This document shows, one piece after another, positions 195 through 61,284 of a stretch of 64,000 nt of DNA. Every line of letters begins with the position of its first letter. Positions within the stretch are counted from its first letter, which is position 1. This DNA is from Saprospiraceae bacterium (GTDB lineage: Bacteria > Bacteroidota > Bacteroidia > Chitinophagales > Saprospiraceae): assembly GCA_027080725.1 (NCBI GenBank), contig JALWRC010000095.1, forward strand, positions 7,415 through 71,414. Direction: 5' to 3'. The position numbers were made by a program, and so were the translations under genes. The notes beneath the pieces were generated by a model. That model did not search any database. It saw only the letters and a program-made list of their open reading frames with translations, and was not told the DNA's origin.

Positions 195-212
195 GTGCAG
201 TTGGTGATACAC
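195..212 (+). promoter_or_regulatory. Copy of the recurrent 18-nt motif GTGCAsTTkGyrATACAC (here GTGCAGTTGGTGATACAC)
   Basis: Read directly. It ends 39 bp upstream of the TAtcTTTG box of the PPK2 gene. A degenerate second copy (CTTTGCAATACACC) overlaps that box at 248-268. Confidence 0.5.
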
Positions 213-251
213 GCGCTTCATTCAAGCGTTGCGATAAATAGAAACATGTAG

Positions 252-259
252 TATCTTTG
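252..259 (+). promoter_or_regulatory. Bacteroidota-type -7 promoter box TAtcTTTG
   Basis: Matches TAnnTTTG and lies 31 bp upstream of ATG 290. Confidence 0.5.
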
Positions 260-289
260 CAATACACCGGCCGTCAAACCAAACCATTT

Positions 290-1033
290 ATGAAAAACAT
301 TTCCACATTGCCCACTACTCCTCCGAAGGAGTTGCACAAGAAAAAAATCGTAAAGAAAACCGAGAAACTGGCCAAACGCATCGGCGAGCTCTCCCGCATC
401 TTGCAGGCAGATGCCGGCCACAGCATCCTCGTCGTGCTCCAGGGGATGGATTCGAGTGGCAAAGACGGAGTAACCCGCGAAGTATTCAAATACTGTAGCC
501 CTTCCGTTGTCTGTGCCGTGTCCTACAAAAAGCCCACTCCTCTGGAATTTGCCCACGATTTTCTCTGGCGCGTACACCGGCACGCTCCCGCCAAAGGGAC
601 GATCAAAGTATTTATCCGCTCCCATTACGAAGATGTGCTCATCCAGCGGGTACACGGATGGATTGACGAAGAGCGGGTCAATATCCGTTTCGACGCCATC
701 AACGCCTTCGAAAAGCTGCTCCAAAAAGACAACAATACCGTTATTCTGAAGTATTTCCTACACCTCTCCCCCGAAAGACAGCTCGAAAAGCTGCAAGAGC
801 GCAAAGAAGAGGAGGATAAATACTGGAAACACAATCCCGGTGACTGGGAGGAGCGCAAATTATGGAAGGAATACATGCATTGCTACCAGGAAGTGTTGGA
901 GCGCTCGGAGATACCTTGGACCGTTATCCCCGCCGATGCCCGATGGTATCGCAACTATTGCGTAGCCAAGTCCGTATGTGAAGCCTTAGAAGCTCTCCAC
1001 CTAAAGTATCCACCCCTAAAGGAGGAGGTATGA
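290..1033 (+). CDS. Polyphosphate kinase 2 family protein (polyphosphate:nucleotide phosphotransferase)
   Basis: ORF 257..1033 trimmed to ATG 290, because the -7 box at 252-259 leaves no room for the 257 start. It has a P-loop-like motif LQGMDSSGKDG, and the size and sequence are typical of single-domain PPK2. Confidence 0.85.
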   Translation: MKNISTLPTTPPKELHKKKIVKKTEKLAKRIGELSRILQADAGHSILVVLQGMDSSGKDGVTREVFKYCSPSVVCAVSYKKPTPLEFAHDFLWRVHRHAPAKGTIKVFIRSHYEDVLIQRVHGWIDEERVNIRFDAINAFEKLLQKDNNTVILKYFLHLSPERQLEKLQERKEEEDKYWKHNPGDWEERKLWKEYMHCYQEVLERSEIPWTVIPADARWYRNYCVAKSVCEALEALHLKYPPLKEEV

Positions 1034-1428
1034 CCCTACAAAAAGTCAGAGTGGACCAATGGCTGTGGTCGGTGCGCATATTTAAGAGCCGCAGCAAAGC
1101 CACCGCAGCTTGCAAAGGTGGCAAAGTACGCATCGATGGGCACCCCGTCAAACCCTCCTTTCACCTCAAAGGAGGCGAAACGGTGCACGTCACCAAAGAC
1201 GGCTTTAACTTACAGTTTGAAGTCCTCCAATTGCTCCACAAACGCGTATCTTTCCCCCTCGCCCAATTGGCTTACAAAGACCGGACCCCACAAGAAGAAA
1301 GAGATAAATACAAGGATTGGTTTGTAGGCAAGTCCGGAGTGGAGTTTCGCGAAAAAGGAGCGGGCCGACCCTCCAAGAAAGACAGGCGCACCCTCGAATC
1401 CTTTAAAACGCATTACCTCGATGAGTAG
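1030..1428 (+). CDS. S4-domain RNA-binding protein, Hsp15/HslR-like
   Basis: N-terminal S4 signature VRVDQWLWSVRIFKSRSKA...GGKVRIDG in a 132-aa protein. The ATGA start overlaps the PPK2 stop. Confidence 0.75.
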   Translation: MTLQKVRVDQWLWSVRIFKSRSKATAACKGGKVRIDGHPVKPSFHLKGGETVHVTKDGFNLQFEVLQLLHKRVSFPLAQLAYKDRTPQEERDKYKDWFVGKSGVEFREKGAGRPSKKDRRTLESFKTHYLDE

Positions 1429-1456
1429 AGTCCCCCCCGGATTGCCTTCAATTCAC

Positions 1457-1464
1457 TACCTTTG
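1457..1464 (+). promoter_or_regulatory. -7 promoter box TAccTTTG
   Basis: Matches TAnnTTTG and lies 24 bp upstream of ATG 1489. Confidence 0.5.
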
Positions 1465-1488
1465 CCGGACGCAAAACCGAAAGCAATC

Positions 1489-4400
1489 ATGAAAACTATA
1501 AAGCCGTATTCTCCCAAGAATCACATCCGTATCGTTACCGCTGCCTCCCTGTTTGACGGGCACGATGCTGCCATCAATATCATGCGAAGGATATTGCAGA
1601 GTTCGGGTGCCGAAATTATCCACCTCGGGCACAATCGTAGCGTAGGGGATATTGTACGAGCGGCGATTCAAGAAGATGTGCAGGGTATTGCTTTGACGTC
1701 TTACCAAGGAGGGCACAACGAGTTTTTTAAGTATATGTATGATTTGTTGCAAGAGAAAGGGGCGAGTCATATCAAGATTTACGGAGGAGGAGGAGGTACG
1801 ATATTGCCTTCGGAGATTGAAGAGCTCGAGGCCTATGGTATTGCCAAGATTTATACTCCCGATGATGGGCGTGTGATGGGTTTGCAAGGGATGATCAACC
1901 ATCTTTTGGAGGGCTGTGATTTTCCCATTGGCAAGGACATTGGGGATGCTTTTGAACGCTTGCCCTCTAAGGACGATCACGCGATAGGGCGGATGATATC
2001 CGGTGTGGAGAACTATCCGGAGTTGCACCGGGAGGTGATAACCGAAATCACACGAATAGCATCTGAAAAGCGCATCCCTGTGCTTGGGATCACCGGGACA
2101 GGTGGTGCGGGTAAGTCGAGCTTGGTGGATGAGTTAATTCGGCGGTTTGTGTTGGACTTTCCGGACAAGAGCATCGGGATAATATCGGTGGATCCGACCA
2201 AGCGAAAGAGTGGGGGAGCGCTGTTGGGGGACCGCATCAGGATGAATGCGATCGACCGCCCCAATGTGTATATGCGTTCGCTGGCAACGCGGCAGGCCAA
2301 CCTCTCGGTCTCTGCTCATGTTCCTGTGGCGGTAGATATTCTGAAAGATGCCGATTTTGACTTCATCATTTTGGAAACCAGCGGCATTGGCCAATCCGAT
2401 ACGGCGATCGTGGACCACTGCGACATCTCTATGTACGTGATGACCCCCGAGTATGGAGCGGCCACCCAGTTGGAGAAAATCGATATGCTCGATTTTGCAG
2501 ATATCGTAGCCATTAACAAGTTTGATAAACGGGGAGCGGACGATGCCTTGATCGCTGTCCAAAAACAATTCATGCGCAATCACCAACTTTGGGACATAGA
2601 CCGGGAAGACTTGCCGGTATTTGGGACCATCGCTTCCCAGTTTAATGACCCCGGAACCAATGCTCTCTATAAGAATCTAATAGCAATACTCAACGAAAAA
2701 TTGGATTTGGGATGGGAGTCGACCCTGCCTATGATAGTGGACAAATCCCAAAAAGTATATATCATCCCTCCGCACCGCGTCCGCTATCTCTCCGAGATTA
2801 AAGAGAGCAACGAAGCCTACGACCGCTGGGTAGAGGAGCAAGCGGAGTGGGCACGCCAATGGCAGCATTTGCTCGAGGCAGAGGCCTTATTGAAAGAGCA
2901 GATGGAGACAAAACCGATAGCGGAAAAGGCGGAGGCCATTGCATTTAATATCTCTCCGGACAACAAGTTGCTCATCACCCGTTGGCCCGAGAAGGTGGCC
3001 AAATACGCCAGGGAAAAGGTCAGTTACTTTGTACGCGGTAAGGAAATCGTGGTGGATGCGCAGGTGGAGACCTTGTCCCACACCAAGATAAGAAAGGTGA
3101 TATTGCCCCGTACCAAGGACTATGGGGAGATACTCAAATGGCAGCTACAGGAGAATGTGCCGGGAGAATTTCCCTTTACCGCAGGGGTGTTTCCCTTCAA
3201 GCGGACAGGAGAACTACCGACGCGCATGTTTGCGGGGGAGGGCGGTCCGGAGCGGACCAACAAGCGCTTCCACTATGTTTCCGGCGAAATGCCTTTCAAG
3301 CGTCTATCTACCGCGTTTGATTCGGTGACATTGTACGGGGAAGATCCGGACGAAAGGCCGGATATCTACGGTAAAATTGGCAATTCCGGAGTGAGCATCT
3401 CTTGTTTGGATGATATGAAAAGGCTGTATTCGGGGTTTGACCTCAGCAGCCCTAAGACTTCGGTTTCGATGACGATCAACGGACCTGCCGCGCAGATGCT
3501 CGCCTTCTTTATGAATGCAGCCATCGACCAAAATTGTGAAAAATACATCAAGGAACACGGGTTGGAATCCCGGGTGGAGGAAGTACTAAAAGCGAAATAC
3601 GACCAACAGGGGATTCCTCGACCGGTGTACCGGGCGGAACTTCCCGAAGGCAATGATGGTCTGGGCCTGATGTTGCTCGGCATCACCGGAGACGAGGTGC
3701 TCCCAGGAGAGGTTTATGCACAAATCAAAGCGGATACCGTAAAGGTCGTGAGAGGAACCGTTCAGGCAGACATCTTGAAGGAAGACCAGGCACAAAATAC
3801 TTGTATTTATAGCACCGAGTTCTCCTTACGAATCATGGGAGATGTTCAGGAGTATTTTATCAACCACGGAGTGCGCAATTTTTATTCTGTCTCCATCTCC
3901 GGATACCACATCGCCGAAGCCGGGGCCAATCCGATCACCCAGGTGGCATTTACCCTATCCAATGCCTTCACTTACGTGGAGTATTACCTCTCCCGAGGGA
4001 TGGATATCAATGCCTTTGCCCCTAATCTGTCGTTTTTCTTTTCCAATGGCATGGATGCGGAATACGCCGTCATCGGTAGGGTAGCACGGCGCATTTGGGC
4101 CAAGGCGATGAAACTCAAATACGGGGCCAACGAACGTGCCCAAAAGCTCAAATACCATATTCAGACTTCCGGGCGCTCTTTGCACGCTCAGGAGATAGAC
4201 TTTAATGATATTCGCACGACCCTACAGGCCCTGTATGCCATTTATGACAATTGCAACAGCTTGCACACCAATGCCTACGACGAAGCGATAACGACTCCTA
4301 CAGAGGAAAGTGTGCGCAGGGCCATGGCGATACAGCTCATCATCAACTTCGAACTCGGCTTAGCCAAGAATGAAAATCCCTTGCAAGGGTCTTTTGTGAT

Positions 4401-4851: not shown

Positions 4852-4930
4852 GGATTTGCCGAGGATTTGTCCTGGATTTGTCCTGGATTTGCCGCCGTTG
4901 GGGTACCCTTCTCGCCCCACTGGACTGGTG

Positions 4931-5070
4931 CCATTTCATATCAGGCAAAAGGAGTGCCTGCAGATATAACTATATCCACACGCTCGACGATTACCATTTC
5001 ATACCTGGTAAAAGTGGAGCGGACAGACAATACTTATCCCGTGCACCTGAAGATCACTATTTCATACCGG
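4931..5070 (-). repeat. Phased triplet of the GGTATGAAATGG word (cores at 4931, 4994, 5057; 63-bp spacing)
   Basis: Read directly. The units have a conserved ~19-nt head (GGTATGAAATrGTrATC) and divergent bodies. They lie in the convergent gap between icmF and the 1862-aa gene. Confidence 0.8.
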
Positions 5071-12025: not shown

Positions 12026-12259
12026 TTAACCGGTGCAAAATACAAATTTATTTTGGGGCTGCAGTTCAAAGACCATTTTGGTTAGATAGTGAAGGCGCAC
12101 AATTCCATAATTTTACTTATTTTTGGCACTTATTAGACGTGTAGAGCGCTTATTCGCATTTGAGGAATCTATCGTACATTTATTTTGCACACGAACGGGC
12201 GATGTTTAGAGCATCATTTTTTCGGGGCAGATTATTTCTAAAACGTAAAACACAAAAAA

Positions 12260-20038: not shown

Positions 20039-20215
20039 TATGTGTATTTAGTGTTTGCCAGAAAACTATCAAATTTTATGAAATGAGGGATTTTGGATGA
20101 GTTTTTTCGTTTTTCGAGACGAAGTGATGCCTGGGCATCAGTGAATTGAGAAAAATAAAAAGATCGCCAAAAGATACATTTCTAATTTTGAAGAGTTTTC
20201 TTGCATACACTATTT
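20039..20215 (+). repeat. 177-bp dispersed repeat, copy 1
   Basis: About 91 percent identical (15 mismatches by my alignment) to 41479-41655, in the same orientation and with sharp boundaries. Confidence 0.85.
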
Positions 20216-20268
20216 ATCAGACGAACCATTTTTTTCGGGCTGATACACTATGAGAAAGAGGCTTCCCC

Positions 20269-21094: not shown

Positions 21095-23872
21095 CTATTT
21101 GATATGCAAGAGCTGAACGCCCTCAAAACGGAATTTCGGAGGATGCATTTTGTCCTTTTGTTCCCACACGAGCCCCTGCCAGGTATTGTCGCAACCATTG
21201 GTGAGGATGACATTCTGCAGGATGAGTTGGGCATCATCTTCGAGGATAATGCGGCCATTGGCCGGGAGACTCACCGTCACGGGCGCTTCTTTTGTTCCGG
21301 ATATCTGTAGGACATGCCCGGACGGAATCCGGATATCCCGGTCCAATCCCCGCGATTGGGTCCATGTTTCTTTAAGGCCAATGGTCCGGGCGACGGAACC
21401 GAGGTCTTCGGGAGAGGCCGCCAATGCCCCTTCCCAAATGCCCCTTCCGAAAGTCGCGGCGCGCAATTTGTTCATGCAGTAATTGATACGCAATTCGGTT
21501 ACCCGGACATTGGGGAAGTCGCACATATGTTTCCAACGGGACATCCCTTTGTCTTTGAAGTAAATGCCGGCATCGGTTCCGATGTAAAGCATATCCTCCG
21601 TACCGTTCTGGTAGACGATGTCGTTGACGGGTAGATTGGAGAGGGAACCCTCCGGGTCGGCATTCGTCCAGTGGTCCCCTCCGTCCTCCGTCTTCCAAAC
21701 CTTTATGCCGGGCTCATAACCCGTGAAGGTGATCCAGGCTTTTAGTGGATTTTCCGGGTCAAATACCACCGATGTCAATGCAGGAATCTCCAGGCTATCC
21801 CCTCGAAAGACCCTCGGCAGATAGTGCCGGTTGATGATACCACTGGCTTTGAGGCGCCCGGTGAGGTCCTTAAAGCAGGTGTCCTTCCGGTACCCATCGA
21901 TTCCGTCACACCCTCCTGTCGTGCTTAGGAAAAGATGGGATTGGACGACATACCCCTTCTTAAAGTCCTTCTGATATCCGTTGACGATGAGGTAGATGTA
22001 GTCGGGGTCAGAAGCGCAGATGTCGTATTCCGTCATTTGGCGCTTCCACCGGGCAGGGATGTATTTGCCGATATCCGAGCGCAGTACCCAAAGGCTATCC
22101 GCCGTATCGTTGCGCTTGGCCGGTCGATGCACTTTGCGTTCGTAAAGCTCGGTCATCGGTATCCAAACCCTGTCCGTGACCGGGTGGTTCTTCATTTGAA
22201 AGGACTTGATGAGGGGCAGTTTGCCGGTGGCCGGATCCCGGGGCAAAAGGCGCTTTATCCATTCGTTCTTCTGCCTTTTTGATATGAAATCGTAGGTCAT
22301 CAGGCGGTTGGACGAACCACTTCCCGCCCCAAATCCCAATCCACCTACCCAATCCACCTTGCCATTGTATCCGTCGCCTCCCTCGAACGTCGTCCACACT
22401 TTGCCGATGAGGACATCCGTGCCGTTGTCTTGGTTGCCGGTGATGATGTGATCCGGCCGGTCTGCCGCATCCCCAAACCGATGAATGGTCTTCACCTGCA
22501 ATCCCTCCGAGTCAAATTGCCATCCGGATGAACCGGCTCGGCTTACGGGTTTTTTGCTGATACCTCCATCCGTACCGGCATAAAGCGTCTTGCCATCCGG
22601 AGAAAAAACGAGGGTGTGCACATCGGCATGGTAGCCATTGCCGGAGTAGGATGAATATCCGCGAATATGGTGCATGTCTCCTCCGTACACCTTTGTGGTG
22701 CCGAAGAACAGGGTGTCGGCATTGCGGGGTGAAATCCCTATTGCTGTCCGTGTCGGGGTGGCCAACTCGAATGCACTGTAGGTCGTCGAATGGCGCAAAT
22801 GGTGCCATTTCATACCATCAAAATAGTAAATGTAATATTCCGGATGCCCGGAGTGCCCCACGATGTAGGCATACAATCGCTCCGGAGCGGCAGGGGTGAC
22901 CCCGATATTAATCCGGTCCACCTCAAATCCTTCGGACAAGGAGTCCAGCATTAGTCCGGTGCCGGGACCGGTCATACTCTGCCAATGCGCTCCCCCGTCC
23001 GTAGAGCGATAAATGTCCAAGCCGCTGGCGTAAAGCGTGTCGGGATGGGTCGGATGTAGCTCCAATCCCTTGAGTTGGCGATCCCGCTCGATGGTCGTGC
23101 CGGTAGCGGATATTTTTCTCCATTGGGGGAACGGTGCCTCGCGATCCGGACAGTAAAATATCCCCTCGCTGCTCACGATCCACATGCCCGGCGAACGCGG
23201 CGAAAGACGCACCTTACGAATCGCCCCTCCCTCCCGGAAGAACCCCAACAATGCCTCCTCCCGGCCATTTGCCGATTGCCAGTGAAGCCCACCGTCCCGG
23301 CTGCGAAAGACTCCGGCGGTGAAAATCGGGGTAAACTGACTCGAACTCCCGTCATCTGTGTTTTCTGCGTGGTGATTGGGGTTGTTTTCTCCATCCCCGG
23401 TCGTGACGAAAAGGGTGTTTTTATTCGCCGGGTCAATGGCCACATCCGATATCGAACTGTAAGGGAGTTGCCCTTGGCCGATGACATGCCATGCATGCCT
23501 CCCCTGTCGCTTCCAGAGGCCGCCGAAATTGCTGCCGGCATACATGACACTGTCGGTCTCATAATCGGGGCTGAAGGCGATGACGTGGATTTGCCCTTGC
23601 CCCTTGGAGGAGGTATAGCCCCCGGGGATGCCGGTCGGACCCAGACAATGCCATTGGGAATGATAGCAACCCGAATCCGCTCCGCCTAAGAAGGATATAG
23701 CGTAGCGCGTAATGTCCGGATCCGGTGGAAGCGTGTCGGTCCTGTTCTTATGGTATGAAATGGCACCATGTCCGGTGACGGCCAAATATCCGGCCCGGTC
23801 TCGTGACATGCTTATCCCGGACACCGCCCACATCCAAAATAATCCGAAAAACAGTAGGATAGTTCTTTGCAT
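21095..23872 (-). CDS. Secreted BNR/Asp-box repeat beta-propeller protein (sortilin/VPS10-like or glycosidase-like)
   Basis: Signal peptide MQRTILLFFGLFWMWAVSG. Repeated Asp-boxes SRDGGLHWQ, STDGGAHWQ and TEDGGDHW. Confidence 0.6.
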   Translation of the reverse strand: MQRTILLFFGLFWMWAVSGISMSRDRAGYLAVTGHGAISYHKNRTDTLPPDPDITRYAISFLGGADSGCYHSQWHCLGPTGIPGGYTSSKGQGQIHVIAFSPDYETDSVMYAGSNFGGLWKRQGRHAWHVIGQGQLPYSSISDVAIDPANKNTLFVTTGDGENNPNHHAENTDDGSSSQFTPIFTAGVFRSRDGGLHWQSANGREEALLGFFREGGAIRKVRLSPRSPGMWIVSSEGIFYCPDREAPFPQWRKISATGTTIERDRQLKGLELHPTHPDTLYASGLDIYRSTDGGAHWQSMTGPGTGLMLDSLSEGFEVDRINIGVTPAAPERLYAYIVGHSGHPEYYIYYFDGMKWHHLRHSTTYSAFELATPTRTAIGISPRNADTLFFGTTKVYGGDMHHIRGYSSYSGNGYHADVHTLVFSPDGKTLYAGTDGGISKKPVSRAGSSGWQFDSEGLQVKTIHRFGDAADRPDHIITGNQDNGTDVLIGKVWTTFEGGDGYNGKVDWVGGLGFGAGSGSSNRLMTYDFISKRQKNEWIKRLLPRDPATGKLPLIKSFQMKNHPVTDRVWIPMTELYERKVHRPAKRNDTADSLWVLRSDIGKYIPARWKRQMTEYDICASDPDYIYLIVNGYQKDFKKGYVVQSHLFLSTTGGCDGIDGYRKDTCFKDLTGRLKASGIINRHYLPRVFRGDSLEIPALTSVVFDPENPLKAWITFTGYEPGIKVWKTEDGGDHWTNADPEGSLSNLPVNDIVYQNGTEDMLYIGTDAGIYFKDKGMSRWKHMCDFPNVRVTELRINYCMNKLRAATFGRGIWEGALAASPEDLGSVARTIGLKETWTQSRGLDRDIRIPSGHVLQISGTKEAPVTVSLPANGRIILEDDAQLILQNVILTNGCDNTWQGLVWEQKDKMHPPKFRFEGVQLLHIK

Positions 23873-23947: not shown

Positions 23948-23955
23948 CAAAAATA
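23948..23955 (-). promoter_or_regulatory. -7 promoter box TAttTTTG (minus strand) for the BNR gene
   Basis: Matches TAnnTTTG and lies 76 bp upstream of ATG 23872. Confidence 0.45.
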
Positions 23956-23996
23956 CGATATCTTTACGGGAATGAGCTTTTGGGACGGAAAAAGGT

Positions 23997-24014
23997 GTGT
24001 ATTACAAAGTGCGC
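23997..24014 (-). promoter_or_regulatory. Copy of the 18-nt motif (GCGCACTTTGTAATACAC on the minus strand)
   Basis: Lies 41 bp upstream of the -7 box at 23948-23955. It is the inverted partner of the copy at 24743-24764. Confidence 0.5.
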
Positions 24015-24110
24015 TTTTTAGAGTATATTCAAAATTCAATCGCTTCAAAAGGAGAAGAATCCAGACACACGTTTTTATGTGGCTAAAGCCAATCTTTTCT
24101 AACTTTTAGA

Positions 24111-24190
24111 CCGTTCGCTGAAGCGAACGGCAAAAGCTGAAGCGAACGGCAAAGGGCTGAAGCGAACGGCAAAAGCTGAAGCAAATGAAA
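24111..24190. repeat. Tandem repeat, 19-20 bp unit GCTGAAGCGAACGGCAAAr, about 3.5 copies
   Basis: Read directly. The first unit completes the hairpin CCGTTCGC-tgaa-GCGAACGG. A single-unit version is at 52276-52310. Confidence 0.85.
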
Positions 24191-24234
24191 TAGGAACATT
24201 GCCCATGCTACATTCTTAAAAAATGCCCATAACT

Positions 24235-24564
24235 AGTGCTCCGCGCAGAAAATAACTATACACATAAACTTGCTCTTTCCCTCTGACTCTTCGTTGCTCA
24301 AACAGTCATTATACTACGGCATAACTCCCGTTTGAGCGTCTCGTGCCCCACGCAAGAAATAAGTAGATATAATAGGCGAAGTTATTTTTTATTTAGACGA
24401 GGCGAAGGTTCTCTTGAATAGCCTTAGCTATTTACGAGGTTCTTCAACGAAGTATAAATATAAAAGGACGAGCATAGATGTTTAGTTATTTTTTGCGTGG
24501 GGCACTACATTCAGAGAAAAATAGCTTCAGTTGCTATGTATATTTATTTCTTGCGCAGAGCACT
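24235..24564. repeat. Four copies of a 21-23 nt unit rGTGCyCyrCGCAAGAAATAA, arranged forward, forward, reverse, reverse (nested inverted repeats)
   Basis: Units at 24235-24257, 24342-24364, 24484-24506 and 24544-24564. The outer pair matches 18/21 and the inner pair 20/23. Confidence 0.8.
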
Positions 24565-24742
24565 GGAGCGTTTTATAATAAACATCATTGCCGTCAGTTT
24601 CAACTGACGGAAAAAGGAATGAAGAGAAATCGGCTTTAGCCTCATCAAACATATACGCGAGTGTATTCGTCCATTCGTGGCCATCAAATAAAAGCATTCG
24701 GGCAATGGTGGCTGTTAGCTTTGTAAGAGGAGTATTGAATTA

Positions 24743-24764
24743 GTGCAGTTTGTAGTACACACAC
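24743..24764 (+). repeat. Orphan copy of the 18-nt motif (GTGCAGTTTGTAGTACACACAC)
   Basis: No -7 box or gene lies downstream. It is the inverted partner of 23997-24014 (768-bp span). Confidence 0.5.
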
Positions 24765-25257
24765 GGAAAAAGGGTGCATAACAAAAGACACCAACACCAT
24801 CAAAACAAAAGAACCGCCCTGCTCGTGGCGACATATCGTCGCACAACGCACAAAAGTGGAGGTTTTAAACCTATGGTTTGCGGTGATTTTAGAAGTATGG
24901 TATTAGCCCTCTGCGTCAGAAAGATATAAGTATAGCAACCGAGGCTCTTGCCGTCCGGATCAAAGTGCCTAAACGGGAGCAAACATAGCCCACGGTTTTA
25001 ACCGTGGGTATGGGATACGAGACAATCCTTGGCAATGGTTTTAATCATTTTATCGAGCTTCATTTTTTGGAATGGACTCAAAAGTCAAAAAAAGAGCAAG
25101 GAAACATTTAGAGTAGTTTTTTTATAGTACCACTCGCTTAGCTTTGTTTCTCGTCATCGCTTTATACTATTGTTAGAATATTCATTGATGCAATCCTCAA
25201 GCCTAATTGTGATGGTTCTATTTACTTTAGAACATTTGTTTTGTTATGAAGGGCGAT

Positions 25258-25967: not shown

Positions 25968-26117
25968 GATATGATGATTTTCTATTTATTAATAAAGGAG
26001 AATAATTCCAGTGCTCCAGTTGTTCCTGCGCGATAAATCATTTAGTAAATCTCCGCTCCCAAGTCTTCCTTCGTCAGCTTTGGGGTTGGAGTTCTTCACG
26101 CTGTTTGTCTTAGATTA

Positions 26118-26135
26118 GTGCACTTTGCAATACCC
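26118..26135 (+). promoter_or_regulatory. Copy of the 18-nt motif (GTGCACTTTGCAATACC), followed by a C8 and (CA)4 tract
   Basis: Ends 42 bp upstream of the dctQ -7 box. Confidence 0.5.
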
Positions 26136-26177
26136 CCCCCACACACACCACATCCCTCCCATTACATAATTTCTGTA

Positions 26178-26185
26178 TATATTTG
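26178..26185 (+). promoter_or_regulatory. -7 promoter box TAtaTTTG for dctQM
   Basis: Matches TAnnTTTG and lies 41 bp upstream of ATG 26226. Confidence 0.5.
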
Positions 26186-39528: not shown

Positions 39529-41148
39529 ATGAATAAGTATTTACTCGCCCTCGTTCTCTCCTTTGTTGTATTTTTTTCGCTAAGTGCACAACATTCGGGG
39601 ATGAAAAATGGGGTATTCTTCAAAAGGGTATTCGCCGACTACCAGACTCCAGAAGGAGGTAGTTTTTTTAATTTCAAATCCTATCGCCCCGCATGGGAGA
39701 TGGGCTACAATCGTCAATTGTTTCCACATTTGAATCTGTCAATACCTATAAGAGCCGGGGTCTACTCGGTCAATTCAGAAAATTCTGTCAATCGGCCCTA
39801 CTTTGGCGCGGATCTTCTGTTGCAGTACTACTTCGGTGGAGATAAGCATGTTATTTTACCTTTTGTGTTTGGAGGAGTTGGGGGGCATAGAGCGTATGAT
39901 GGTTCGTTGAACATTCAAGCTCCCGTCGGGGCCGGATTGTTTATTCGGATGTATGACGGTGCGTACTTTACCGCTGATGCATCATATAGATTTGGCACAA
40001 AGAAAAGCAACTTGCAGTATGGTGTGGGATTTGTCTACTCCCTCAATAAATTGGTAGAAAAGATGAAAATTTCTGATACAGGGAAAAGGTCCATGGATAG
40101 TGATGGGGACGGCATCATTGATGAATTGGATTTATGTCCTTCGATTGCCGGTTTGGAGAAGTTCATGGGATGTCCTGACTCTGATGAGGATGGGATAGAG
40201 GATAGCAAGGACAAATGTCCCGATGTGGCAGGGCCGAAATCGCTAATGGGATGTCCCGATAGCGATGGGGATGGTGTCGCCGACGTAGAAGACACATGCC
40301 CCAATCTTAAAGGAGTGGCATCCAATCATGGCTGTCCGGAGACTGCGGCTGATAGTGATAAGGATGGAGTTCCTGATGATAAAGACAAATGTCCGGATGT
40401 CGCCGGTTCGTCCTCTACCATGGGCTGTCCCGACACGGATGGTGACGGAATTGCGGATTACGAAGACAATTGCCCCAATTTGAAAGGCGTGGCTTCCAAT
40501 CACGGCTGCCCGGGCGTCTTGGATAGCGACGGAGACGGAGTCTCTGATAGTGAGGATAATTGTCCAAATATCAAAGGATTGGCGTCTAATCACGGTTGCC
40601 CGGGAATTGCAGATAGTGACGGAGATGGCATCGAAGATAGTAAAGATAAATGTCCTAATCAGGTAGGTGTTATCCAGTTTAGTGGTTGTCCGGATAGTGA
40701 TGGAGACGGCATTCCCGATAGTGAGGACTATTGTCCTAACACCAGAGGACCGAAGAGTACACACGGTTGTCCTGAGATTAAGAAGGAAGACCGGGATGTA
40801 TTGGATATCGCGATGCGCGCTGTTCAGTTTGAGACCGGTAAGGCGACGTTAAAATACTCTTCGTTCACCATTTTGGATAAAATCGCCGAAATTATGCGAA
40901 AATACCGGGATTATAATTTGATCATCAGTGGCCATACCGATAATACCGGTCGTGCTGTTATCAATCAAAGACTGTCCGAACGCCGGGCAAAAGCCTGTTA
41001 CGAATACCTCATTAATAAGGGAGTCGCACCATCAAGAATGCGCTATGCTGGATATGGAGAATCCCGGCCTATCGCCGATAACTTGACAGCACAAGGGCGA
41101 GCCCTTAACCGCAGAGTCGAATTTAAATTAGTGCCTTCAAGAAGATAG
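39529..41148 (+). CDS. OmpA-family protein with thrombospondin type-3 (Ca-binding) repeats
   Basis: It has an N-terminal beta-barrel-like region and about ten DSDGDGIxDxxDxCP repeats. The C-terminal OmpA domain carries ISGHTDNTG...NQRLSERRA...NRRVEF. Confidence 0.85.
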   Translation: MNKYLLALVLSFVVFFSLSAQHSGMKNGVFFKRVFADYQTPEGGSFFNFKSYRPAWEMGYNRQLFPHLNLSIPIRAGVYSVNSENSVNRPYFGADLLLQYYFGGDKHVILPFVFGGVGGHRAYDGSLNIQAPVGAGLFIRMYDGAYFTADASYRFGTKKSNLQYGVGFVYSLNKLVEKMKISDTGKRSMDSDGDGIIDELDLCPSIAGLEKFMGCPDSDEDGIEDSKDKCPDVAGPKSLMGCPDSDGDGVADVEDTCPNLKGVASNHGCPETAADSDKDGVPDDKDKCPDVAGSSSTMGCPDTDGDGIADYEDNCPNLKGVASNHGCPGVLDSDGDGVSDSEDNCPNIKGLASNHGCPGIADSDGDGIEDSKDKCPNQVGVIQFSGCPDSDGDGIPDSEDYCPNTRGPKSTHGCPEIKKEDRDVLDIAMRAVQFETGKATLKYSSFTILDKIAEIMRKYRDYNLIISGHTDNTGRAVINQRLSERRAKACYEYLINKGVAPSRMRYAGYGESRPIADNLTAQGRALNRRVEFKLVPSRR

Positions 41149-41478: not shown

Positions 41479-41655
41479 ATGTGTATTTAGTGCTTGCCAG
41501 AAAACTGTCAAATTTCATAAAATGAAAGATTTTGGATGAGCTTTTTCATTTTTCGAGACGAAGTGATGCCGGGGTATCAGTGAGTTGAGAAGAATATAAA
41601 GATCGCCAAAAGATACATTTCTAATTTTGAAGAGTTTTCTTGCAAGCACTATTTA
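41479..41655 (+). repeat. 177-bp dispersed repeat, copy 2
   Basis: See copy 1 at 20039-20215. Confidence 0.85.
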
Positions 41656-52226: not shown

Positions 52227-52533
52227 ACACACCCGTTTTTATGTGGCTAAAGCTAATTTTCTCCTTATTCTCAGACCGTTCGCTGAAGCGTACGGCAAAA
52301 GGCAGAAGCAAACAAAATTAGGAGAGGTTATTATGCAGGATAGATTTATTATATGGTCCATTCCGGCGCAATTACCAAGCGGGAACCGGCGCTAACCCGG
52401 TATAGTGGTATTATGTCTTCTATGGTCTAATGCTCCAAGAATGAAATAGAGGGCCTACGAACCGAAGTTATTTTTTGCTGAATCGAGGCCCTCAAACAGG
52501 AGTAAGCATAGCCCACGGTTTTAACAGCGGGAT
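52227..52533. repeat. Short relative of the 24.07-25.01 kb repeat mosaic
   Basis: It shares the left end CACAC(C)CGTTTTTATGTGGCTAAAGC., the CCGTTCGCTGAAGCG.ACGGCAAAA unit, and the right end CATAGCCCACGGTTTTAAC. Confidence 0.75.
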
Positions 52534-52736: not shown

Positions 52737-53090
52737 ATGGAAACTGAAAGGCAGATAATTTTTTATGGTCAATATTTTACTCAGTTTTATTTAAAACAAA
52801 CGGAGAAAGTTCAGGAAAAAATTGAATATGTCTTTAAAATAATAAGTACAGTCCAAAATGTGCCGAAAAAGTTTCTTAACCATATTAGCGGAACGGAAGG
52901 TCTCTATGAAATAAGAATTGAATTTCAAAGTAATATCTACAGGGTTTTCTGTTGCTTTGACCATTTGAATTTGGTAGTATTGTTTAATGGATTTCAGAAA
53001 AAATCTAAAAAGACGCCAAAAAATGAAATTAAATTAGCTTTGAGATTAAAATCAGAATATTTTAACTCTAAAAAGAAAAATAGTGAATAA
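52737..53090 (+). CDS. Type II toxin, RelE/ParE superfamily (phage Gp49/HigB-like)
   Basis: GLYEIRIEFQSNIYRVFCCFD...LVVLFNGFQKKSKKTP is typical of the Gp49-like family. G+C is about 30 percent. Confidence 0.8.
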   Translation: METERQIIFYGQYFTQFYLKQTEKVQEKIEYVFKIISTVQNVPKKFLNHISGTEGLYEIRIEFQSNIYRVFCCFDHLNLVVLFNGFQKKSKKTPKNEIKLALRLKSEYFNSKKKNSE

Positions 53091-53388
53091 AGAGAAAATT
53101 ATAAATGCTAAGAACTTTGATGAATTATTGGACATCAAATACGGAAATATTGGAACTGAAGAACGTGATATGTTCGAGGAGAAAGCTCAATATTTTGTAA
53201 TTAGTGAGGTATTGAAAGCAGCTCGTAAAGAAGCAAATATGACCCAAGAACAACTCGCGAGAAAAGTCGGAACAAAGAAAAGTTATATTTCAAGACTTGA
53301 AAATGGAAAATGCGATATTCAACTTTCAACTTTATACAGAATTTTTGAATTTGGACTTGGAAAGAGAGTAAAGTTAGTTTTCGAATAA
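53083..53388 (+). CDS. XRE-family HTH antitoxin (HigA-like)
   Basis: It has the HTH MTQEQLARKVGTKKSYISRLENGK and overlaps the toxin gene by 8 bp. Confidence 0.8.
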   Translation: MNKEKIINAKNFDELLDIKYGNIGTEERDMFEEKAQYFVISEVLKAARKEANMTQEQLARKVGTKKSYISRLENGKCDIQLSTLYRIFEFGLGKRVKLVFE

Positions 53389-57036: not shown

Positions 57037-57067
57037 ACTATCTTAAATTTTAGTGATAAAACCCCTT

Positions 57068-57083
57068 ATGCAAACGTTTGCAT
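57068..57083. promoter_or_regulatory. LacI-family-type operator, perfect palindrome ATGCAAACGTTTGCAT
   Basis: Read directly. It lies between the -7 box (57094-57101, minus strand) and ATG 57036. Confidence 0.7.
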
Positions 57084-57093
57084 AAAGCAATAG

Positions 57094-57101
57094 CAAAAGT
57101 A
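57094..57101 (-). promoter_or_regulatory. -7 promoter box TActTTTG (minus strand) of the phyH-rhaT operon
   Basis: Matches TAnnTTTG and lies 58 bp upstream of ATG 57036. Confidence 0.5.
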
Positions 57102-57130
57102 GTAAAATTTGTTGAAATATATAATAAAGT

Positions 57131-57148
57131 GTGTATTACAAAGTGCAC
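57131..57148 (-). promoter_or_regulatory. Copy of the 18-nt motif (GTGCACTTTGTAATACAC on the minus strand)
   Basis: Lies 29 bp upstream of the -7 box at 57094-57101. It is the inverted partner of 57590-57609. Confidence 0.5.
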
Positions 57149-57165
57149 TTTATTATAACCTCATA

Positions 57166-57545
57166 TCGCCACGGTGGCACAGGCTCCCCCCATCCCTACC
57201 GCCACAAAGGCACAGGCTCTACTCCTTCATAAACTGTGACGCCTCGGCGTTATATCAATCTGTACATCGTGTATATATTTATGATGAAGGAGAGGGGGGG
57301 CTTATGTTTCTCTAACTGTAGGGAATTTCATTAGGGTAATACTCAGCTAAATATAGAGTGTATCCCTACCGCCACGGCGGCACAGGCTCTCCTTTGGCTA
57401 AGTATTTACTATATTACTTGATGTATTTCAAAGGAGAAGAGCCTGTGCCGCTTTAGCGGTAGGTTAGGGGATGAGGTTGTTTAGACGGGATTCGGGATTT
57501 AGAGGGTGTATTCTCTCTTCCTATACCGCCACGGCGGCACAGGTT
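57166..57545. repeat. REP-like cluster: five copies of (CC)TACCGCCACGGCGGCACAGGCTC
   Basis: Copies at 57166-57187 (+), 57195-57220 (+), 57364-57390 (+), 57438-57470 (-) and 57523-57545 (+). Copies 3 and 4 form a long inverted repeat. Confidence 0.8.
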
Positions 57546-57589
57546 ATGCTAATTGAAACCTATGACACCAAGGCGTACAAGACGTAATA

Positions 57590-57609
57590 GTGCAGTTTGT
57601 AATACACCC
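57590..57609 (+). repeat. Orphan copy of the 18-nt motif (GTGCAGTTTGTAATACACCC)
   Basis: It points into the 3' end of radC with no -7 box downstream. With 57131-57148 it brackets a 479-bp ORF-free segment. Confidence 0.5.
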
Positions 57610-57663
57610 ACCCACGTACTATCACAGGATATACTTAATCCGCATTGGAATACTCCGGCATGT

Positions 57664-58371: not shown

Positions 58372-58490
58372 ACTTCACAATTATTAATGTGTTCGACAGG
58401 GTAAAGATAGGAAAAGCCCACCATTTCATACCTGATTTGATTAATTTTTTTATGTTTGGGAGTATTTTATCATATCACAAACATGCTCAT

Positions 58491-59978
58491 ATGGAGTCTT
58501 ACGGTTTTTTGTCTGTTCTACCCCCCGTTTTAGCCATTCTCCTGGCCATCCGGACCAAGCAGGTCTATGTTTCTTTGGTCTTCGGCATCGGCTTGGGCTG
58601 GTTGATTCTTTCGCACTGGAACCCGTGGGTGGGTTTTCTCAATACCATCGAAGCTTTTGTGAACGTATTTCAATCTCGGGGCAATACCCGAACCATCATG
58701 TTTAGTGCACTCGTGGGAAGTCTCATCGTGCTGATACAACGCTCGGGCGGTGTGCATGGGTTTATCGATGGGGTGGAGCGCTATCTCGAGCGCCTCGAGG
58801 GACGCGATATTCAGCATAAGCGCAGGTTTGTTCAGATGTTGGCGTGGCTGGTTGGCGTCATTGTCTTTGTAGAGACGAGCATCTCCTCTTTGACCGTGGG
58901 AACCCTTTTTCGCCCGATATTTGACAAATTGCACATCTCGAGGGAAAAGCTGGCTTACATAGCGGATGCGAGTTCGGCTGCCACTTCGATTATGATACCC
59001 TTTAATGCTTGGGGGGCTTTTATCATGGGACTATTGATAACGCAGGGCTTCGACGAGCCGTTTACGGCGATGTTTCGCTCCATGCCGTACAATTTCTACC
59101 CCATATTGACGCTGGCCATGGTACCCATCCTCGTCTGGTGGTCTTTGGACTTTGGCCCGATGAAAAAGGCGGAACTCCGCGCCAATACCACCGGAAAAGT
59201 CATCGCCGACGGAGCGAAACCCATGATAAGTGAGGACCTCCTCCATGTCGAACCCGTAGAGGGTAAGCCTCGACGGATGATGAACATGCTTATCCCTATC
59301 GGTGTCATGGTAGGGATGATGCCCGTGATGCTTTCGATTACCGGATGGCAAGATGCCGTCACTGCCAACCCCGATGCCGGAACCTTTGCGACCATCCTCA
59401 CCGCTATAGGTAAGGGGTCCGGATCGACCTCTGTGCTGGTGTCCGTCATTTTAGCGATATTGGTGTGCATGTTGCTCTACTGGGGGCAGCGTCTGATGGG
59501 GTTTCTGGAGATGGTGGAACTCTCGATTAAGGGCCTCTCCAATATGATGCCGCTGGCTTTGCTCATGCTTCTCGCCTTTGCCATCGGAGCTGTGTGCAAA
59601 TCCCTTGGGACCGGCCAATATGTAGCCGAGGTAGCCAAATCCTGGTTGTCGCCCGCTCTCGTTCCGTCCATCGTTTTTGTCGTAAGTGCGTTTATCGCCT
59701 TTTCTACCGGCACCTCCTGGGGGACCTTTGCGATTATGATTCCCATCGCCGTGCCCATGGCGCAGACCATGGATGTCAATGTCTATATGGCCATCGCAGC
59801 GGCTTTGGGCGGGGGCGTTTATGGCGACCACAGTTCGCCGATATCCGACACCACGATTATATCATCCATGGCTTCCGCGAGCGACCATATCGACCATGTC
59901 AACACCCAAATGCCCTACGCCCTTGTCGCCGGGGGCATATCTGTCGTCCTGTATTTGATATTGGGTTTTATCCGGTAG
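58491..59978 (+). CDS. Na+/H+ antiporter NhaC-family membrane protein
   Basis: ORF 58359..59978 trimmed to MESYGFLSVLPPVLAILLAIRTKQ. It is a polytopic protein with NhaC-like sequence. Confidence 0.75.
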   Translation: MESYGFLSVLPPVLAILLAIRTKQVYVSLVFGIGLGWLILSHWNPWVGFLNTIEAFVNVFQSRGNTRTIMFSALVGSLIVLIQRSGGVHGFIDGVERYLERLEGRDIQHKRRFVQMLAWLVGVIVFVETSISSLTVGTLFRPIFDKLHISREKLAYIADASSAATSIMIPFNAWGAFIMGLLITQGFDEPFTAMFRSMPYNFYPILTLAMVPILVWWSLDFGPMKKAELRANTTGKVIADGAKPMISEDLLHVEPVEGKPRRMMNMLIPIGVMVGMMPVMLSITGWQDAVTANPDAGTFATILTAIGKGSGSTSVLVSVILAILVCMLLYWGQRLMGFLEMVELSIKGLSNMMPLALLMLLAFAIGAVCKSLGTGQYVAEVAKSWLSPALVPSIVFVVSAFIAFSTGTSWGTFAIMIPIAVPMAQTMDVNVYMAIAAALGGGVYGDHSSPISDTTIISSMASASDHIDHVNTQMPYALVAGGISVVLYLILGFIR

Positions 59979-59987
59979 AGGATGTGC

Positions 59988-60145
59988 AGGTATGAAATGG
60001 TGGAGATTGGTGTTGTGGTGGACCATCTTGCTATCTGATATGGATCCTGTTCTTTTCCGGTATGAAATGGTGGAGTTGTCGTTGTACACAAGACATTTCA
60101 TCTTCTGAAGTGCCTTTGGTTTTTTTCGGTATGAAATGGCGGGCG
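59988..60145 (+). repeat. Phased triplet of the GGTATGAAATGG word (cores at 59991, 60061, 60130; 70- and 69-bp spacing)
   Basis: Read directly. It starts 13 bp after the nhaC-like stop, and the bodies between the heads are divergent. Confidence 0.8.
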
Positions 60146-60728
60146 GTAGTAGGTTAAAGCCCAATTCGACGCTACCTGATTTTCTGTATGATGCCGACCG
60201 GTTGGTGAAATGCACCCGGAAATACAGTTGGGGATAAGAATATCCGGCAATGATTTACTTTGTAGAATAAATTCATTGTGCTAAGCAATGGGAAATTTTA
60301 GATTTAGCTCCGTCCTATATGCAGTATAGGCGCACGCGAAATTTATATCAACTAAAATCAGCGTTACAGTTCTACATGAAGAAAGTACATTACTCGATTT
60401 AATATCCTTTTAGGGCTACGAGTTGTCTCTTTTGTTAGTCCTTACCTGAGATGTTGTTGACCAAAAGAGATGTTTCCTGGTTTGGAGAGTTTTTTTTACT
60501 GGCATTAAAGAGGAACGCACTAATTTATTGTGGACTCTGTTTTTTCCATAAGAGAATGCTGCAAAACCGTTAACTTTCTCAGATTTAAATCATTGTAACT
60601 CATGCATTGCGTAATATGAATATGTCTTCATCATAGTACCCATAAACTCTACAGTAAAATTCGAACTATCGATTTTATGCAAAATCAAAAATGATTTGCT
60701 CTTATAGCTTCATAAAATGAAAAGTATG

Positions 60729-60736
60729 TATATTTG
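60729..60736 (+). promoter_or_regulatory. -7 promoter box TAtaTTTG for tRNA-His
   Basis: Matches TAnnTTTG and ends 14 bp before the tRNA 5' end. Confidence 0.6.
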
Positions 60737-60749
60737 CGCTCTCAAAAAT

Positions 60750-60825
60750 GGTGGATGTAGCTCAGTTGGTTAGAGCGCTGGATTGTGGTTCCAGAGGTCG
60801 CCGGTTCAAATCCGGTCTTCCACCC
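60750..60825 (+). tRNA. tRNA-His (anticodon GTG), with encoded G-1
   Basis: Cloverleaf folded by hand. The anticodon stem is CTGGA/TCCAG, the loop is TTGTGGT, the T-loop is TTCAAAT, and an extra 5' G pairs with discriminator C. Confidence 0.9.
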
Positions 60826-60986
60826 TTTTTTGCCTTCTTGAGATACTTTATATGTCTGTATGTCAGATAGTTATCGCTTGTGAGCAGCGCCAAAAATGGC
60901 TAAAAATTTGGCAGAGTTTTGGCAGAGTTTTTTCTCAAGTGGGGTTTTTGTAAGGGGAATGTCCAATCGTTTACCTTCGCAGCCTC

Positions 60987-60994
60987 TAAGTTTG
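60987..60994 (+). promoter_or_regulatory. -7 promoter box TAagTTTG for tRNA-Ser
   Basis: Matches TAnnTTTG and ends 6 bp before the tRNA 5' end. Confidence 0.6.
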
Positions 60995-60999
60995 TATTC

Positions 61000-61087
61000 G
61001 GAGGAGTGGCAGAGCTGGTTGAATGCACCGGTCTTGAAAACCGGCGTACTCGAAAGGGTACCGGGGGTTCGAATCCCTCCTCCTCCG
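61000..61087 (+). tRNA. tRNA-Ser (anticodon TGA), long variable arm
   Basis: The acceptor stem is GGAGGAG/CTCCTCC, the anticodon stem CCGGT/ACCGG, the loop CTTGAAA and the T-loop TTCGAAT. The variable arm is 17 nt. Confidence 0.9.
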
Positions 61088-61093
61088 CTTTGT

Positions 61094-61132
61094 ACAAAAC
61101 CCATTCCGTACACGAATGGGTTTTGTGTTTTA
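61094..61132 (+). terminator. Intrinsic terminator after tRNA-Ser
   Basis: Perfect 13-bp stem ACAAAACCCATTC/GAATGGGTTTTGT followed by a T-rich tail. Confidence 0.75.
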
Positions 61133-61264
61133 TGGGGCACTCGCTAAGGTCGTTACTGCAATATTACTTTTGCGCGGAGCCCCAAAGTTGTCATCGGGAG
61201 ACTTTGGAACGGAGATTTAAAGAAGCTTTATCACCCGGGAGCGATTGGTTTAAACTTGGAAACT

Positions 61265-61284
61265 GTGCAGTTTGTAATGTACAC
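61265..61284 (+). promoter_or_regulatory. Copy of the 18-nt motif (GTGCAGTTTGTAATGTACAC, 2-nt insertion)
   Basis: Ends 37 bp upstream of the topA -7 box. Confidence 0.5.

Follow-up and report, generated by a model that had tools for sequence, protein, structure and literature searches.

A terminal inverted repeat common to several MITE families lies at a near-fixed distance upstream of -7 boxes in an uncultured Saprospiraceae species

Insertion-site choice is strongly non-random for several mobile elements and is directed by a recognizable sequence or structure. IS1397 and ISKpn1 target REP sequences, IS30 targets its own inverted repeats and hot-spots, and Tn7 targets attTn7. The retrotransposons TRE5-A of Dictyostelium, which integrates ∼48 bp upstream of tRNA genes, and Ty3 and Ty1 of yeast, which integrate upstream of Pol III genes, are tethered by TFIIIB/TFIIIC. 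ISPpu9 inserts into REP sequences (PMC12288879), and bacterial MITEs are represented by Correia/CREE (Neisseria), ERIC, RUP, MITEAba12 and BrickBuilt (Porphyromonas gingivalis) (PMC10969869; PMC4596501; PMC6382973). The elements described here resemble these known MITEs in being small, ORF-less, multi-copy, intergenic and strain-variable, in carrying terminal inverted repeats (TIRs) and target-site duplications (TSDs), and in often lying just upstream of genes. Whereas known bacterial MITEs are reported as generally ‘intergenic’ or with outward promoters or IHF sites of their own, the present MITEs contribute no core promoter, lie 38–41 bp upstream of a host -7 box, where the same target is re-hit, and carry several unrelated interiors under one TIR. 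They share with TRE5 and Ty a near-fixed upstream distance, a gene left unharmed (a ‘safe haven’) and the possibility of repeat hits, but are derivatives of bacterial cut-or-copy DNA transposons at putative sigma-A-type promoters, with a tethering that we infer. They also share strongly non-random site choice with IS1397/ISKpn1, ISPpu9, IS30 and Tn7; for those systems the target is a specific sequence or repeat at the insertion point, whereas in the present MITEs the duplicated target is variable and weakly C-rich, and what stays constant is a box 30–40 bp away. As MITEs the elements are ordinary; the near-fixed distance between promoter and element is apparently undescribed for bacterial transposons, as a review and papers on bacterial MITEs describe no fixed spacing to a host promoter, and a search of the literature for this TIR sequence, or for bacterial transposition targeted to promoters, returned no precedent.

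The window (the whole 64-kb stretch of DNA that was analysed) contains seven matches to an 18-nt motif, GTGCASTTTGYAATACAC, at ≤3 mismatches (195+, 23997-, 24743+, 26118+, 57131-, 57590+ and 61265+). Shuffled sequences give an expectation of 0.14 matches and none of 100 shuffles reached seven, in agreement with the recurrence claimed in the original prediction. A TGTAATACA palindrome and a half-site, GTGCAC, lie within the motif, which makes up the outer 18 nt of a 20-bp TIR, GTGTGTATTACAAA(G/C)TGCAC. Several non-autonomous DNA transposon (MITE) families have this TIR in common, and all seven copies in the window are MITE ends. Two inverted pairs had been recognized previously, and these are found at 23995–24762 (768 bp) and 57129–57609 (481 bp). 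The copies at 195, 26118 and 61265 had been taken to stand alone, but all three are intact ends of MITEs of family B or D, with a partner end that lies beyond the window start or has mutated past recognition. A further, degenerate copy had been proposed at 248–268 and is instead the -7 box of PPK2, TATCTTTG (252–259), followed by CAATACAC. This locus carries no MITE subterminal sequence, the sole such case in ∼0.65 Mb, and the box with its TIR-like tail may be a relic TIR. Rfam and tRNA scans of the window gave no match to a known RNA family where the motif lies, two tRNAs being the sole Rfam matches.

The elements were examined in ∼0.59 Mb of same-species contigs together with the window, using the metagenome Ga0256832, which contains a strain 97–98% identical to the window. 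Loci were chosen for an exact TIR, and therefore copy-number estimates are biased; spacing is unaffected. The set comprises 201 TIR ends, of which 155 bear a subterminal 25-mer of one of ten recurrent kinds, and at least six MITE families (145–800 bp) with one common TIR in one uncultured Saprospiraceae species. The 70 inward-facing TIR pairs, many with 0–2 mismatches per 18-mer, give element sizes of 143–839 bp, and MITE interiors are 72–93% identical across copies. No ORF of ≥100 aa is present in the window elements, and no multicopy ORF in the 0.65 Mb. Exact flanking direct repeats of 8–12 bp are found for 14/70 pairs (chance ∼1e-4 per pair), and the absence of a recognizable TSD from 47/70 pairs is due partly to mis-assigned array pairs and partly to age. 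Strains and relatives differ in occupancy. In L063, two extra MITEs are each flanked by CCCCCCACAC, of which the window has a single copy at that position, and the tRNA-Ser–topA site is MITE-free in two sister species (TopA identity 83–86%) that keep both the synteny and the TACTTTTG box, the MITE at this site (61135..61284) being found in three assemblies of the host species. An L024 MITE is missing from the window at ∼12092 and does not form a clean TSD/empty-site pair. TSDs and empty sites in relatives, which had been proposed as checks, were thus both found (14/70 pairs; L063; topA), and the mobile-element reading of the original prediction is borne out by the TIRs, 8–10-bp TSDs, subterminal families, strain polymorphism and empty sites. 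Elements of the IS200/IS605-REP/RAYT type or of the integrase type were rejected; 8–10-bp TSDs are present, and no tRNA/att logic was seen.

Within the window, a family B MITE (1..214, +) is truncated by the window start (∼18 nt missing) and directs its right 20-bp TIR (195–214) toward the predicted PPK2 promoter, the -7 box of which, TATCTTTG (252..259, +), starts 39 nt past the 18-mer. Its subterminal caaaacaatgtattgactccttttt matches class B1, its interior (19–194) is like 23 B/E-family copies at 72–91% identity, and a syntenic counterpart is present in L035. The family C MITE (23995..24762; TIRs 23995–24014 and 24743–24762) is flanked on both sides by the TSD ACGGAAAAAG (23985..23994 and 24763..24772), and 41 nt past its end is the -7 box TATTTTTG (23948..23955, -) of a BNR/sortilin-like gene (21095–23872, -; weak Sortilin-Vps10 match in Pfam). 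Hairpin-repeat modules are nested inside this MITE, which has no ORF of ≥100 aa; the strain L115 copy shares 92.7% identity with it, and further matching C-family copies are present in L017, L038, L108 and L113. Adjoining it is an older, decayed MITE with a degenerate TIR (24773..24791, -; 13/18 matches), and the 13-nt spacer between the two has the usual length of a MITE–MITE junction. A family D MITE of ∼155 bp (25983..26137), the left TIR of which is unrecognizable by mutation, has an intact right TIR (26118–26137) toward the putative dctQM promoter, with the -7 box TATATTTG (26178..26185, +) 42 nt past the 18-mer; it aligns to D copies in L077, L036, L030 and L111, and its interior (25998–26119) matches 13 D copies. 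The C-rich target CCCCCCACACACAC (26138..26151) is unoccupied in the window and bears two further tandem MITEs in the related strain L063.

The family A MITE (57129..57609; TIRs 57129–57148 and 57590–57609) has an interior of CCTACCGCCACGGCGGCACAGGCTCT hairpin units, its right end facing the 3′ end of radC, and 29 nt past its other end is the -7 box TACTTTTG (57094..57101, -) of the phyH–creatininase–aldo/keto reductase–rhaT operon. At least 12 similar copies of this family (75–84% identity) all terminate at the TIR, and the A element of strain L106 lacks the internal segment 57387–57523. Finally, a family D MITE at 61135..61284 (left boundary approximate, left ∼45 nt degenerate) directs its intact right TIR (61265–61284) toward the predicted topA promoter, with the -7 box TACTTTTG (61322..61329, +) 39 nt past the 18-mer. 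Measured from the 18-mer end to the first TAnnTTTG, the spacings reported earlier for PPK2, BNR, dctQ and phyH (39, 41, 42 and 29) stand, and that for topA is 39, not 37, the latter having been counted from 20-nt coordinates. The gene identities given earlier are likewise supported by Pfam (PPK2, PhyH, Toprim/Topoisom_bac, DctQ/DctM and weak Sortilin-Vps10), and comparison of the motif-to-box DNA among the five units found no relatedness, as had been noted. Of the ∼12 ORFs in the window that are preceded by an exact box, five have a docked MITE.

TAnnTTTG boxes are regarded here as putative promoters on the basis of consensus, position and conservation. Among 146 unique free ends, 37 have an exact TAnnTTTG starting 39–43 nt past the 18-mer, as compared with 0.39 expected, and 28 of these 37 lie at 40–41 nt. 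A box at 45–79 nt is seen for ∼1 of the 146 free ends and a box at 20–38 nt for 13 ends, and boxes in reverse orientation show no spacing peak. A plot of motif-to-box distance had been suggested as a check, and over ∼0.65 Mb it gives this 39–43-nt peak; its maximum at 40–41 nt agrees with the proposal that a MITE end preferentially lands ∼40 bp upstream of promoters. The spacing is alike in all ten end classes and precise to ∼1 bp. Derivation of the anchored flanks from fragments of older MITEs was ruled out, as none matches a MITE interior, and the flanks are alike in three pairs only, from paralogous loci. The TIR was also ruled out as the source of the -33 element because its TTTG lies ∼48 nt from the box. 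At least one side is anchored in 30/50 complete elements or arrays, and ∼40% of elements have no adjacent exact box. On the anchored side, the ORF always reads away from the element and the region from -33 to -7 is uninterrupted in every case, and on the distal side there is usually 200–900 nt more intergenic DNA; half of all ends point toward the 3′ end of a gene or toward another repeat. Neither chance nor the available space would predict so many ends ∼40 bp from the -7 box on its upstream side, which suggests promoter-guided insertion.

The tandem arrays bear on how this spacing is to be understood. Spacers of 11–14 nt, i.e. one TSD plus the TIR tips, are found at 15/19 MITE–MITE junctions, an identical TSD occurs three times in L094, and triple TSD copies are present in L063 as well. 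At the promoter side of the arrays, the box lies at 39 nt in L094 and L063 and at 41 nt in L089. The same 9–10-bp target is repeatedly re-hit by new copies, giving tandem arrays. Near-random intergenic insertion, with the 40-bp spacing left by selection against closer or other insertions, would be in keeping with the restriction of the MITEs to intergenic DNA, with a -33 to -7 region that is never broken in anchored cases, and with the fact that surviving insertions alone are visible. Such selection accounts for the lower bound but not for the missing tail (37 ends at 39–43 nt versus ∼1 at 45–79 nt), despite the further 200–900 nt of non-coding DNA usually present on the distal side; nor does it account for the reuse of an identical target, as seen in the TSD-sized junction spacers and triple TSDs, or for ∼1-bp precision across ten different end classes, and we consider it unlikely. 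The arrays could alternatively reflect IS30-like self-targeting, in which new copies are drawn to existing TIRs and not to promoters; abutting ends are often separated by a TSD-sized spacer, and the two extra MITEs of L063 directly adjoin an older D-family end. As this leaves unexplained both the single, non-arrayed elements at 39–43 nt from a -7 box and the constant promoter-side spacing of the arrays, it is extremely improbable as an account of the data; self-targeting could be additional to promoter anchoring.

The motif resembles class I activator sites (CRP at -61.5, for instance) and UP elements in promoter-relative position and in partial dyad symmetry. The original prediction had entertained a global activator or UP-like site at approximately -55 to -65, spread by a MITE or co-opted, of which the promoter-proximal copies would be functional. 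The class I/UP position, the TGTAATACA palindrome with its GTGCAC half-site, and the intact promoter-proximal and decayed distal TIRs at dctQ and topA are all consistent with such a role. Unlike class I/UP sites, however, the motif is part of a transposon end and fails the tests expected of a conserved regulatory site. MITE subterminal sequence accompanies all seven window copies and 155/201 ends overall, sister-species topA promoters keep the -7 box without the motif, and TIR decay is no less on the anchored side: across 27 elements anchored at one end, mismatches number 1.26 for the anchored TIR and 1.04 for its partner (Wilcoxon p = 0.72). Promoter-proximal ends are therefore no better conserved than distal ends and give no sign of co-option. 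Solo ends show no anchoring enrichment (p = 0.29), and half of the ends are directed at the 3′ end of a gene or at another repeat, neither of which favours a regulatory site. The motif is also all but missing from 185,579 reference genomes, in which the exact 18-mer has 13 matches, all singletons and not above a rough chance estimate (∼35 for 596 Gb); 12 of these look like chance, and the remaining one, from a Saprospiraceae MAG, is on a contig identical to one in Ga0256832. A scan of viral contigs returned two chance matches, and motif matches outside Ga0256832 either fall by coincidence in coding sequence or belong to an unrelated 42-bp tandem array. Compared by eye, the sigma-54, CRP/FNR and IHF consensus sequences do not fit the motif. 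Taken with the subterminal sequences, the motif-free sister promoters and the undiminished TIR decay at anchored ends, a regulator site is very unlikely.

TIR-bearing MITE families with promoter-directed integration by a trans-acting transposase thus provide what is, in our judgement, quite probably the best overall explanation. One DDE-type transposase would recognize the common TIR and mobilize all families in trans, and the cognate ORF would be flanked by GTGTGTATTACAAASTGCAC. Integration would place the promoter-proximal edge of the element 38–41 bp upstream of TAnnTTTG, the Bacteroidota -7 box, i.e. at approximately -52, just upstream of the -33 element, and the transposase may read the box directly or may dock on promoter-bound RNA polymerase/sigma or on its DNA bend. 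Insertion would leave both the core promoter and the duplicated target whole, and therefore the same site could be re-hit, building MITE–TSD–MITE–TSD–promoter arrays. That the transposase reads promoter architecture, directly or via sigma-A/RNA polymerase, with ∼1-bp precision ∼39 bp upstream of the -7 box, is a proposition that we favour slightly; the evidence on targeting comes entirely from copies that have survived. Searches of the window, of 0.8 Mb of retrieved loci and of viral contigs turned up neither an autonomous element nor a transposase associated with this TIR, and hence we infer the enzyme family and the mobilization in trans. An all-against-all BLASTP of 651 ORFs revealed no multicopy ORF, and relaxed TIR pairs 0.9–3.5 kb apart around an ORF were chance matches only. 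A Pedobacter TIR pair was rejected as an autonomous element; its ends sit in a radical-SAM gene and a ferritin-like gene.

If promoter-directed integration is correct, these MITEs would be a natural bacterial case of protein- or architecture-guided integration alongside Tn7/CAST and the REP-hunting IS elements, and a prokaryotic counterpart of the ‘safe-haven’ targeting of Ty3 and TRE5, in which many consensus promoters are colonised and genes are not inactivated. It would explain how the genome tolerates hundreds of insertions, and it would offer a sequence-only marker of active Bacteroidota promoters in an uncultured lineage as well as a transposase usable for promoter-proximal DNA delivery. 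It also cautions that repeated near-palindromes upstream of promoters are not necessarily regulator sites. Comparison of docked and undocked promoters revealed no discrete extra motif in the consensus; docked promoters show a weak excess of C and deficit of G across the 20 nt beside the TIR and a G before the TA of the box.

A search of the window for the 18-mer GTGCASTTTGYAATACAC at ≤3 mismatches returns seven matches, at 195 (+), 23997 (−), 24743 (+), 26118 (+), 57131 (−), 57590 (+) and 61265 (+), against 0.14 expected from dinucleotide-preserving shuffles, none of 100 of which gets to seven. Outward of five copies, a Bacteroidota-type −7 promoter box (TAnnTTTG) is present at 39, 41, 42, 29 and 39 nt; of the other two, the copy at 24743 faces a decayed repeat and that at 57590 the 3′ end of radC. 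Taken with the Pfam assignments of the neighbouring genes (PPK2, a sortilin/BNR-like protein, DctQ/DctM, PhyH and TopA), the motif count and box distances therefore bear out the descriptive part of the original prediction. The degenerate copy that it had placed at 248–268 (+) exists as a stretch, but is made up of the PPK2 −7 box plus CAATACAC, a combination found at this locus only, and may be a relic terminal inverted repeat (TIR).

TopA homologues put the organism in Saprospiraceae, with just two known sister species (86% and 83% identity) and every other homologue at ≤66%, and one window protein is 100% identical in the ENA metagenome scaffold ERZ23491061 JOHN19-1 scaffold_247. Among 185,579 reference genomes the exact motif has 13 matches, all singletons and not above chance by a rough estimate (∼35 for 596 Gb, not tool-computed); one lies on a contig of a Saprospiraceae MAG that is also present, in identical form, in metagenome Ga0256832. 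A scan of JGI metagenomes for the motif gave 113 loci, ∼82 of them from the single sample Ga0256832, which holds a strain 97–98% identical to the window across long syntenic stretches. The same-species set from this sample comprises ∼0.59 Mb of DNA with 201 motif copies at ≤3 mismatches. A 42-bp tandem array (6–11 units) whose unit includes the exact 18-mer GTGCACTTTGTAATACAC, seen at metagenome loci L060, L067, L070, L088, L118 and L125 (Ga03079xx), is unrelated and has no MITE features.

On its inner side the motif falls into recurrent classes, with 155 of the 201 copies matching one of ten 25-nt subterminal sequences, and the outer-side DNA differs without relation from copy to copy. Copies of paired end classes face one another, 145–800 bp apart, and BLAST of the window against the element interiors gives similarity over whole elements, ending exactly at the motif. 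The inverted repeat measures 20 bp, i.e. the 18-mer plus two bases outward. Where target-site duplications (TSDs) were looked for, exact direct repeats of 8–12 bp (mostly 8–10 bp) lie directly outside it in 14 pairs, including ACGGAAAAAG at both flanks of the window element at 23995–24762. In the window, the 23997/24743 pair forms an element of family C and the 57131/57590 pair one of family A. The 195 (+) copy belongs to family B, the partner end lying just past the window start, whereas 26118 (+) and 61265 (+) each mark the end of a family D element whose other end has decayed.

Insertion differences are seen between strains and species. In the related strain, at locus L063, two extra elements directly follow the counterpart of the 26118 copy, each bounded by CCCCCCACAC, which occurs once at the corresponding window site. 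An empty site in relatives is provided by the tRNA-Ser–topA intergenic region, in which both sister species keep the TACTTTTG box and the element is absent. Locus L024 of the related strain has a family B MITE at 2660–2894, separating the divergently oriented promoters of genes for a DUF3667 protein and an OMP, that is absent from the window at 12092–12096. The pair offers no clean TSD/empty site; the filled allele has no TSD, and 9 nt of the window (AGTGAAGGC) are unmatched. The difference may stem from recombination or be the footprint of an excision. No ORFs were found inside the elements. Paired TIRs, TSDs, recurrent subterminal classes, the lack of ORFs and insertion differences thus identify the elements as MITEs, and every other MITE feature tested was found; a search for a cognate autonomous IS, covering the window, 0.8 Mb of metagenome loci and viral contigs, found none. 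As several families have one common TIR, they would all be mobilised in trans by one transposase. In a separate comparison, synteny between the window from 24763 onward and locus L115 (1–2767) is lost precisely where the family C MITE ends on its right, past which the L115 contig goes on with unrelated sequence, suggesting either a rearrangement associated with the MITE or a join made in assembly.

The motif-to-box distance was then scored across loci, excluding ends that abut another MITE and removing duplicate loci, which left 146 independent free ends, all from surviving insertions only. The first TAnnTTTG past the 18-mer starts at 39–43 nt in 37 of these (28 at 40 or 41 nt) versus 0.39 expected from the box density of these sequences, so that the spacing originally noted at five promoters recurs as a distinct peak. 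A further 13 free ends have the box at 20–38 nt and about one has it between 45 and 79 nt, ∼9 more have a one-mismatch box at equal offset, and boxes in reverse orientation give no peak at free ends. The same spacing holds in all ten end classes, and is thus a property of the common TIR and its machinery rather than of element interiors. No match to a MITE interior was seen in any anchored flank (those at such a box), and the only flanks that resemble one another are three pairs from paralogous loci. On the anchored side there is always an ORF pointing away from the element and starting 50–180 nt off; the other side usually holds 200–900 nt more non-coding DNA, so the position is not forced by lack of room. 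At least one side is anchored in 30 of 50 complete elements or arrays, and in the window, an unselected sequence, a docked MITE occurs at 5 of the ∼12 ORFs preceded by an exact box. About 40% of elements have no exact box nearby, some of these having near-boxes at the right offset.

Individual targets are also used repeatedly. Where MITEs abut, the spacer from 18-mer to 18-mer is 11–14 nt in 15 of 19 junctions, the length of a single TSD together with the two-base tips of the TIRs. Locus L094 carries CCTTTACATC three times, to the left of the first element, between both and to the right of the second, which is followed 39 nt on by TATCTTTG; the same triple arrangement is found at L063 with CCCCCCACAC. 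In the window, a decayed older TIR (24773–24791) flanks the intact family C element on the side farther from the promoter, across a 13-nt spacer. Successive insertions therefore enter the identical 9–10-bp target beside the promoter, displacing older copies away from it.

The alternative first proposed, that the motif is a global regulator or UP-type site, is disfavoured by three tests: the motif is not conserved at orthologous promoters, promoter-proximal TIRs show no extra constraint (1.26 versus 1.04 mismatches, p = 0.72) and solo ends are not enriched for anchoring (p = 0.29). Random insertion followed by selection accounts for the lower bound of the spacing, but leaves both the missing tail and the re-use of identical targets unaccounted for, and self-targeting to existing TIRs, which may contribute to arrays, cannot place the first copy. 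We favour placement by the promoter, which would anchor target choice by a putative DDE-type transposase cutting with an 8–10-bp stagger. Taking the box as about −12 to −5, the TIR tip would lie at about −52 and the duplicated target at ∼−51 to −42, adjoining the −33 element on its upstream side. Just upstream of −33, promoter-bound RNA polymerase bends the DNA, and sigma region 4 and the alpha-CTD sit there. The precision could be explained by the transposase either docking on polymerase or reading the box directly. Apart from a weak C-rich, G-poor bias, no consensus is seen in the duplicated target.

Bacterial MITEs are described as intergenic, at times with their own promoters, and a fixed distance to a host promoter is not described for them in the reviews and papers searchable. 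The closest known functional analogues are retrotransposons of eukaryotes whose integration sites lie a fixed distance upstream of Pol III genes, the apparent likeness being in fixed-distance upstream placement. By itself the motif is an ordinary transposon end, and the interest lies in its promoter-anchored placement.

Several other repeats occur in the window. The interiors of MITEs (24099–24175, 24230–24565, 57159–57550) are pieced together from smaller families of hairpin repeats, namely tandem units of CCGTTCGCTGAAGCGAACGG, inverted repeats of GTGCCCCACGCAAGAAATAA and units of CCTACCGCCACGGCGGCACAGGCTCT, the number of which varies by strain (e.g. L106, a related-strain locus, is without 57387–57523). 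The 788-bp segment 52230–53017 corresponds to 119 bp in L106; it has hairpin-repeat modules in common with MITE interiors at 52229–52531, no recognisable TIR, and includes the 5′ portion of a gene for a Gp49-like toxin (52737–53090), which is paired with an HTH gene (53083–53388). A 177-nt repeat is present twice, at 20040–20216 and 41479–41655 (92% identity), without flanking TIRs, and also within a composite MITE at locus L059. The 12-mer GGTATGAAATGG is ∼50-fold over-represented (22 window matches at ≤1 mismatch versus 0.44 expected), for example at 4931–5068 (minus strand, three tandem copies), 19200, 35155, 39319, 59989/60059/60128 (three tandem copies) and 29736 (−)/29787 (+). It occurs about equally on both strands, in and out of ORFs, often just 3′ of genes behind a T-run and sometimes in 63–70-nt tandem units or inverted pairs; exact copies number 79 across the ∼0.59-Mb same-species contig set and 1 across ∼30 kb from sister species, with 0 in 126 kb of unrelated loci. 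The 12-mer may be a word akin to an uptake signal or one associated with terminators. Finally, 40095–40779, within the ORF at 39529–41148, is a run of 81–93-nt coding repeats (GATAGTGATGGAGACGGC…) of a thrombospondin-type-3/calcium-binding-like type.
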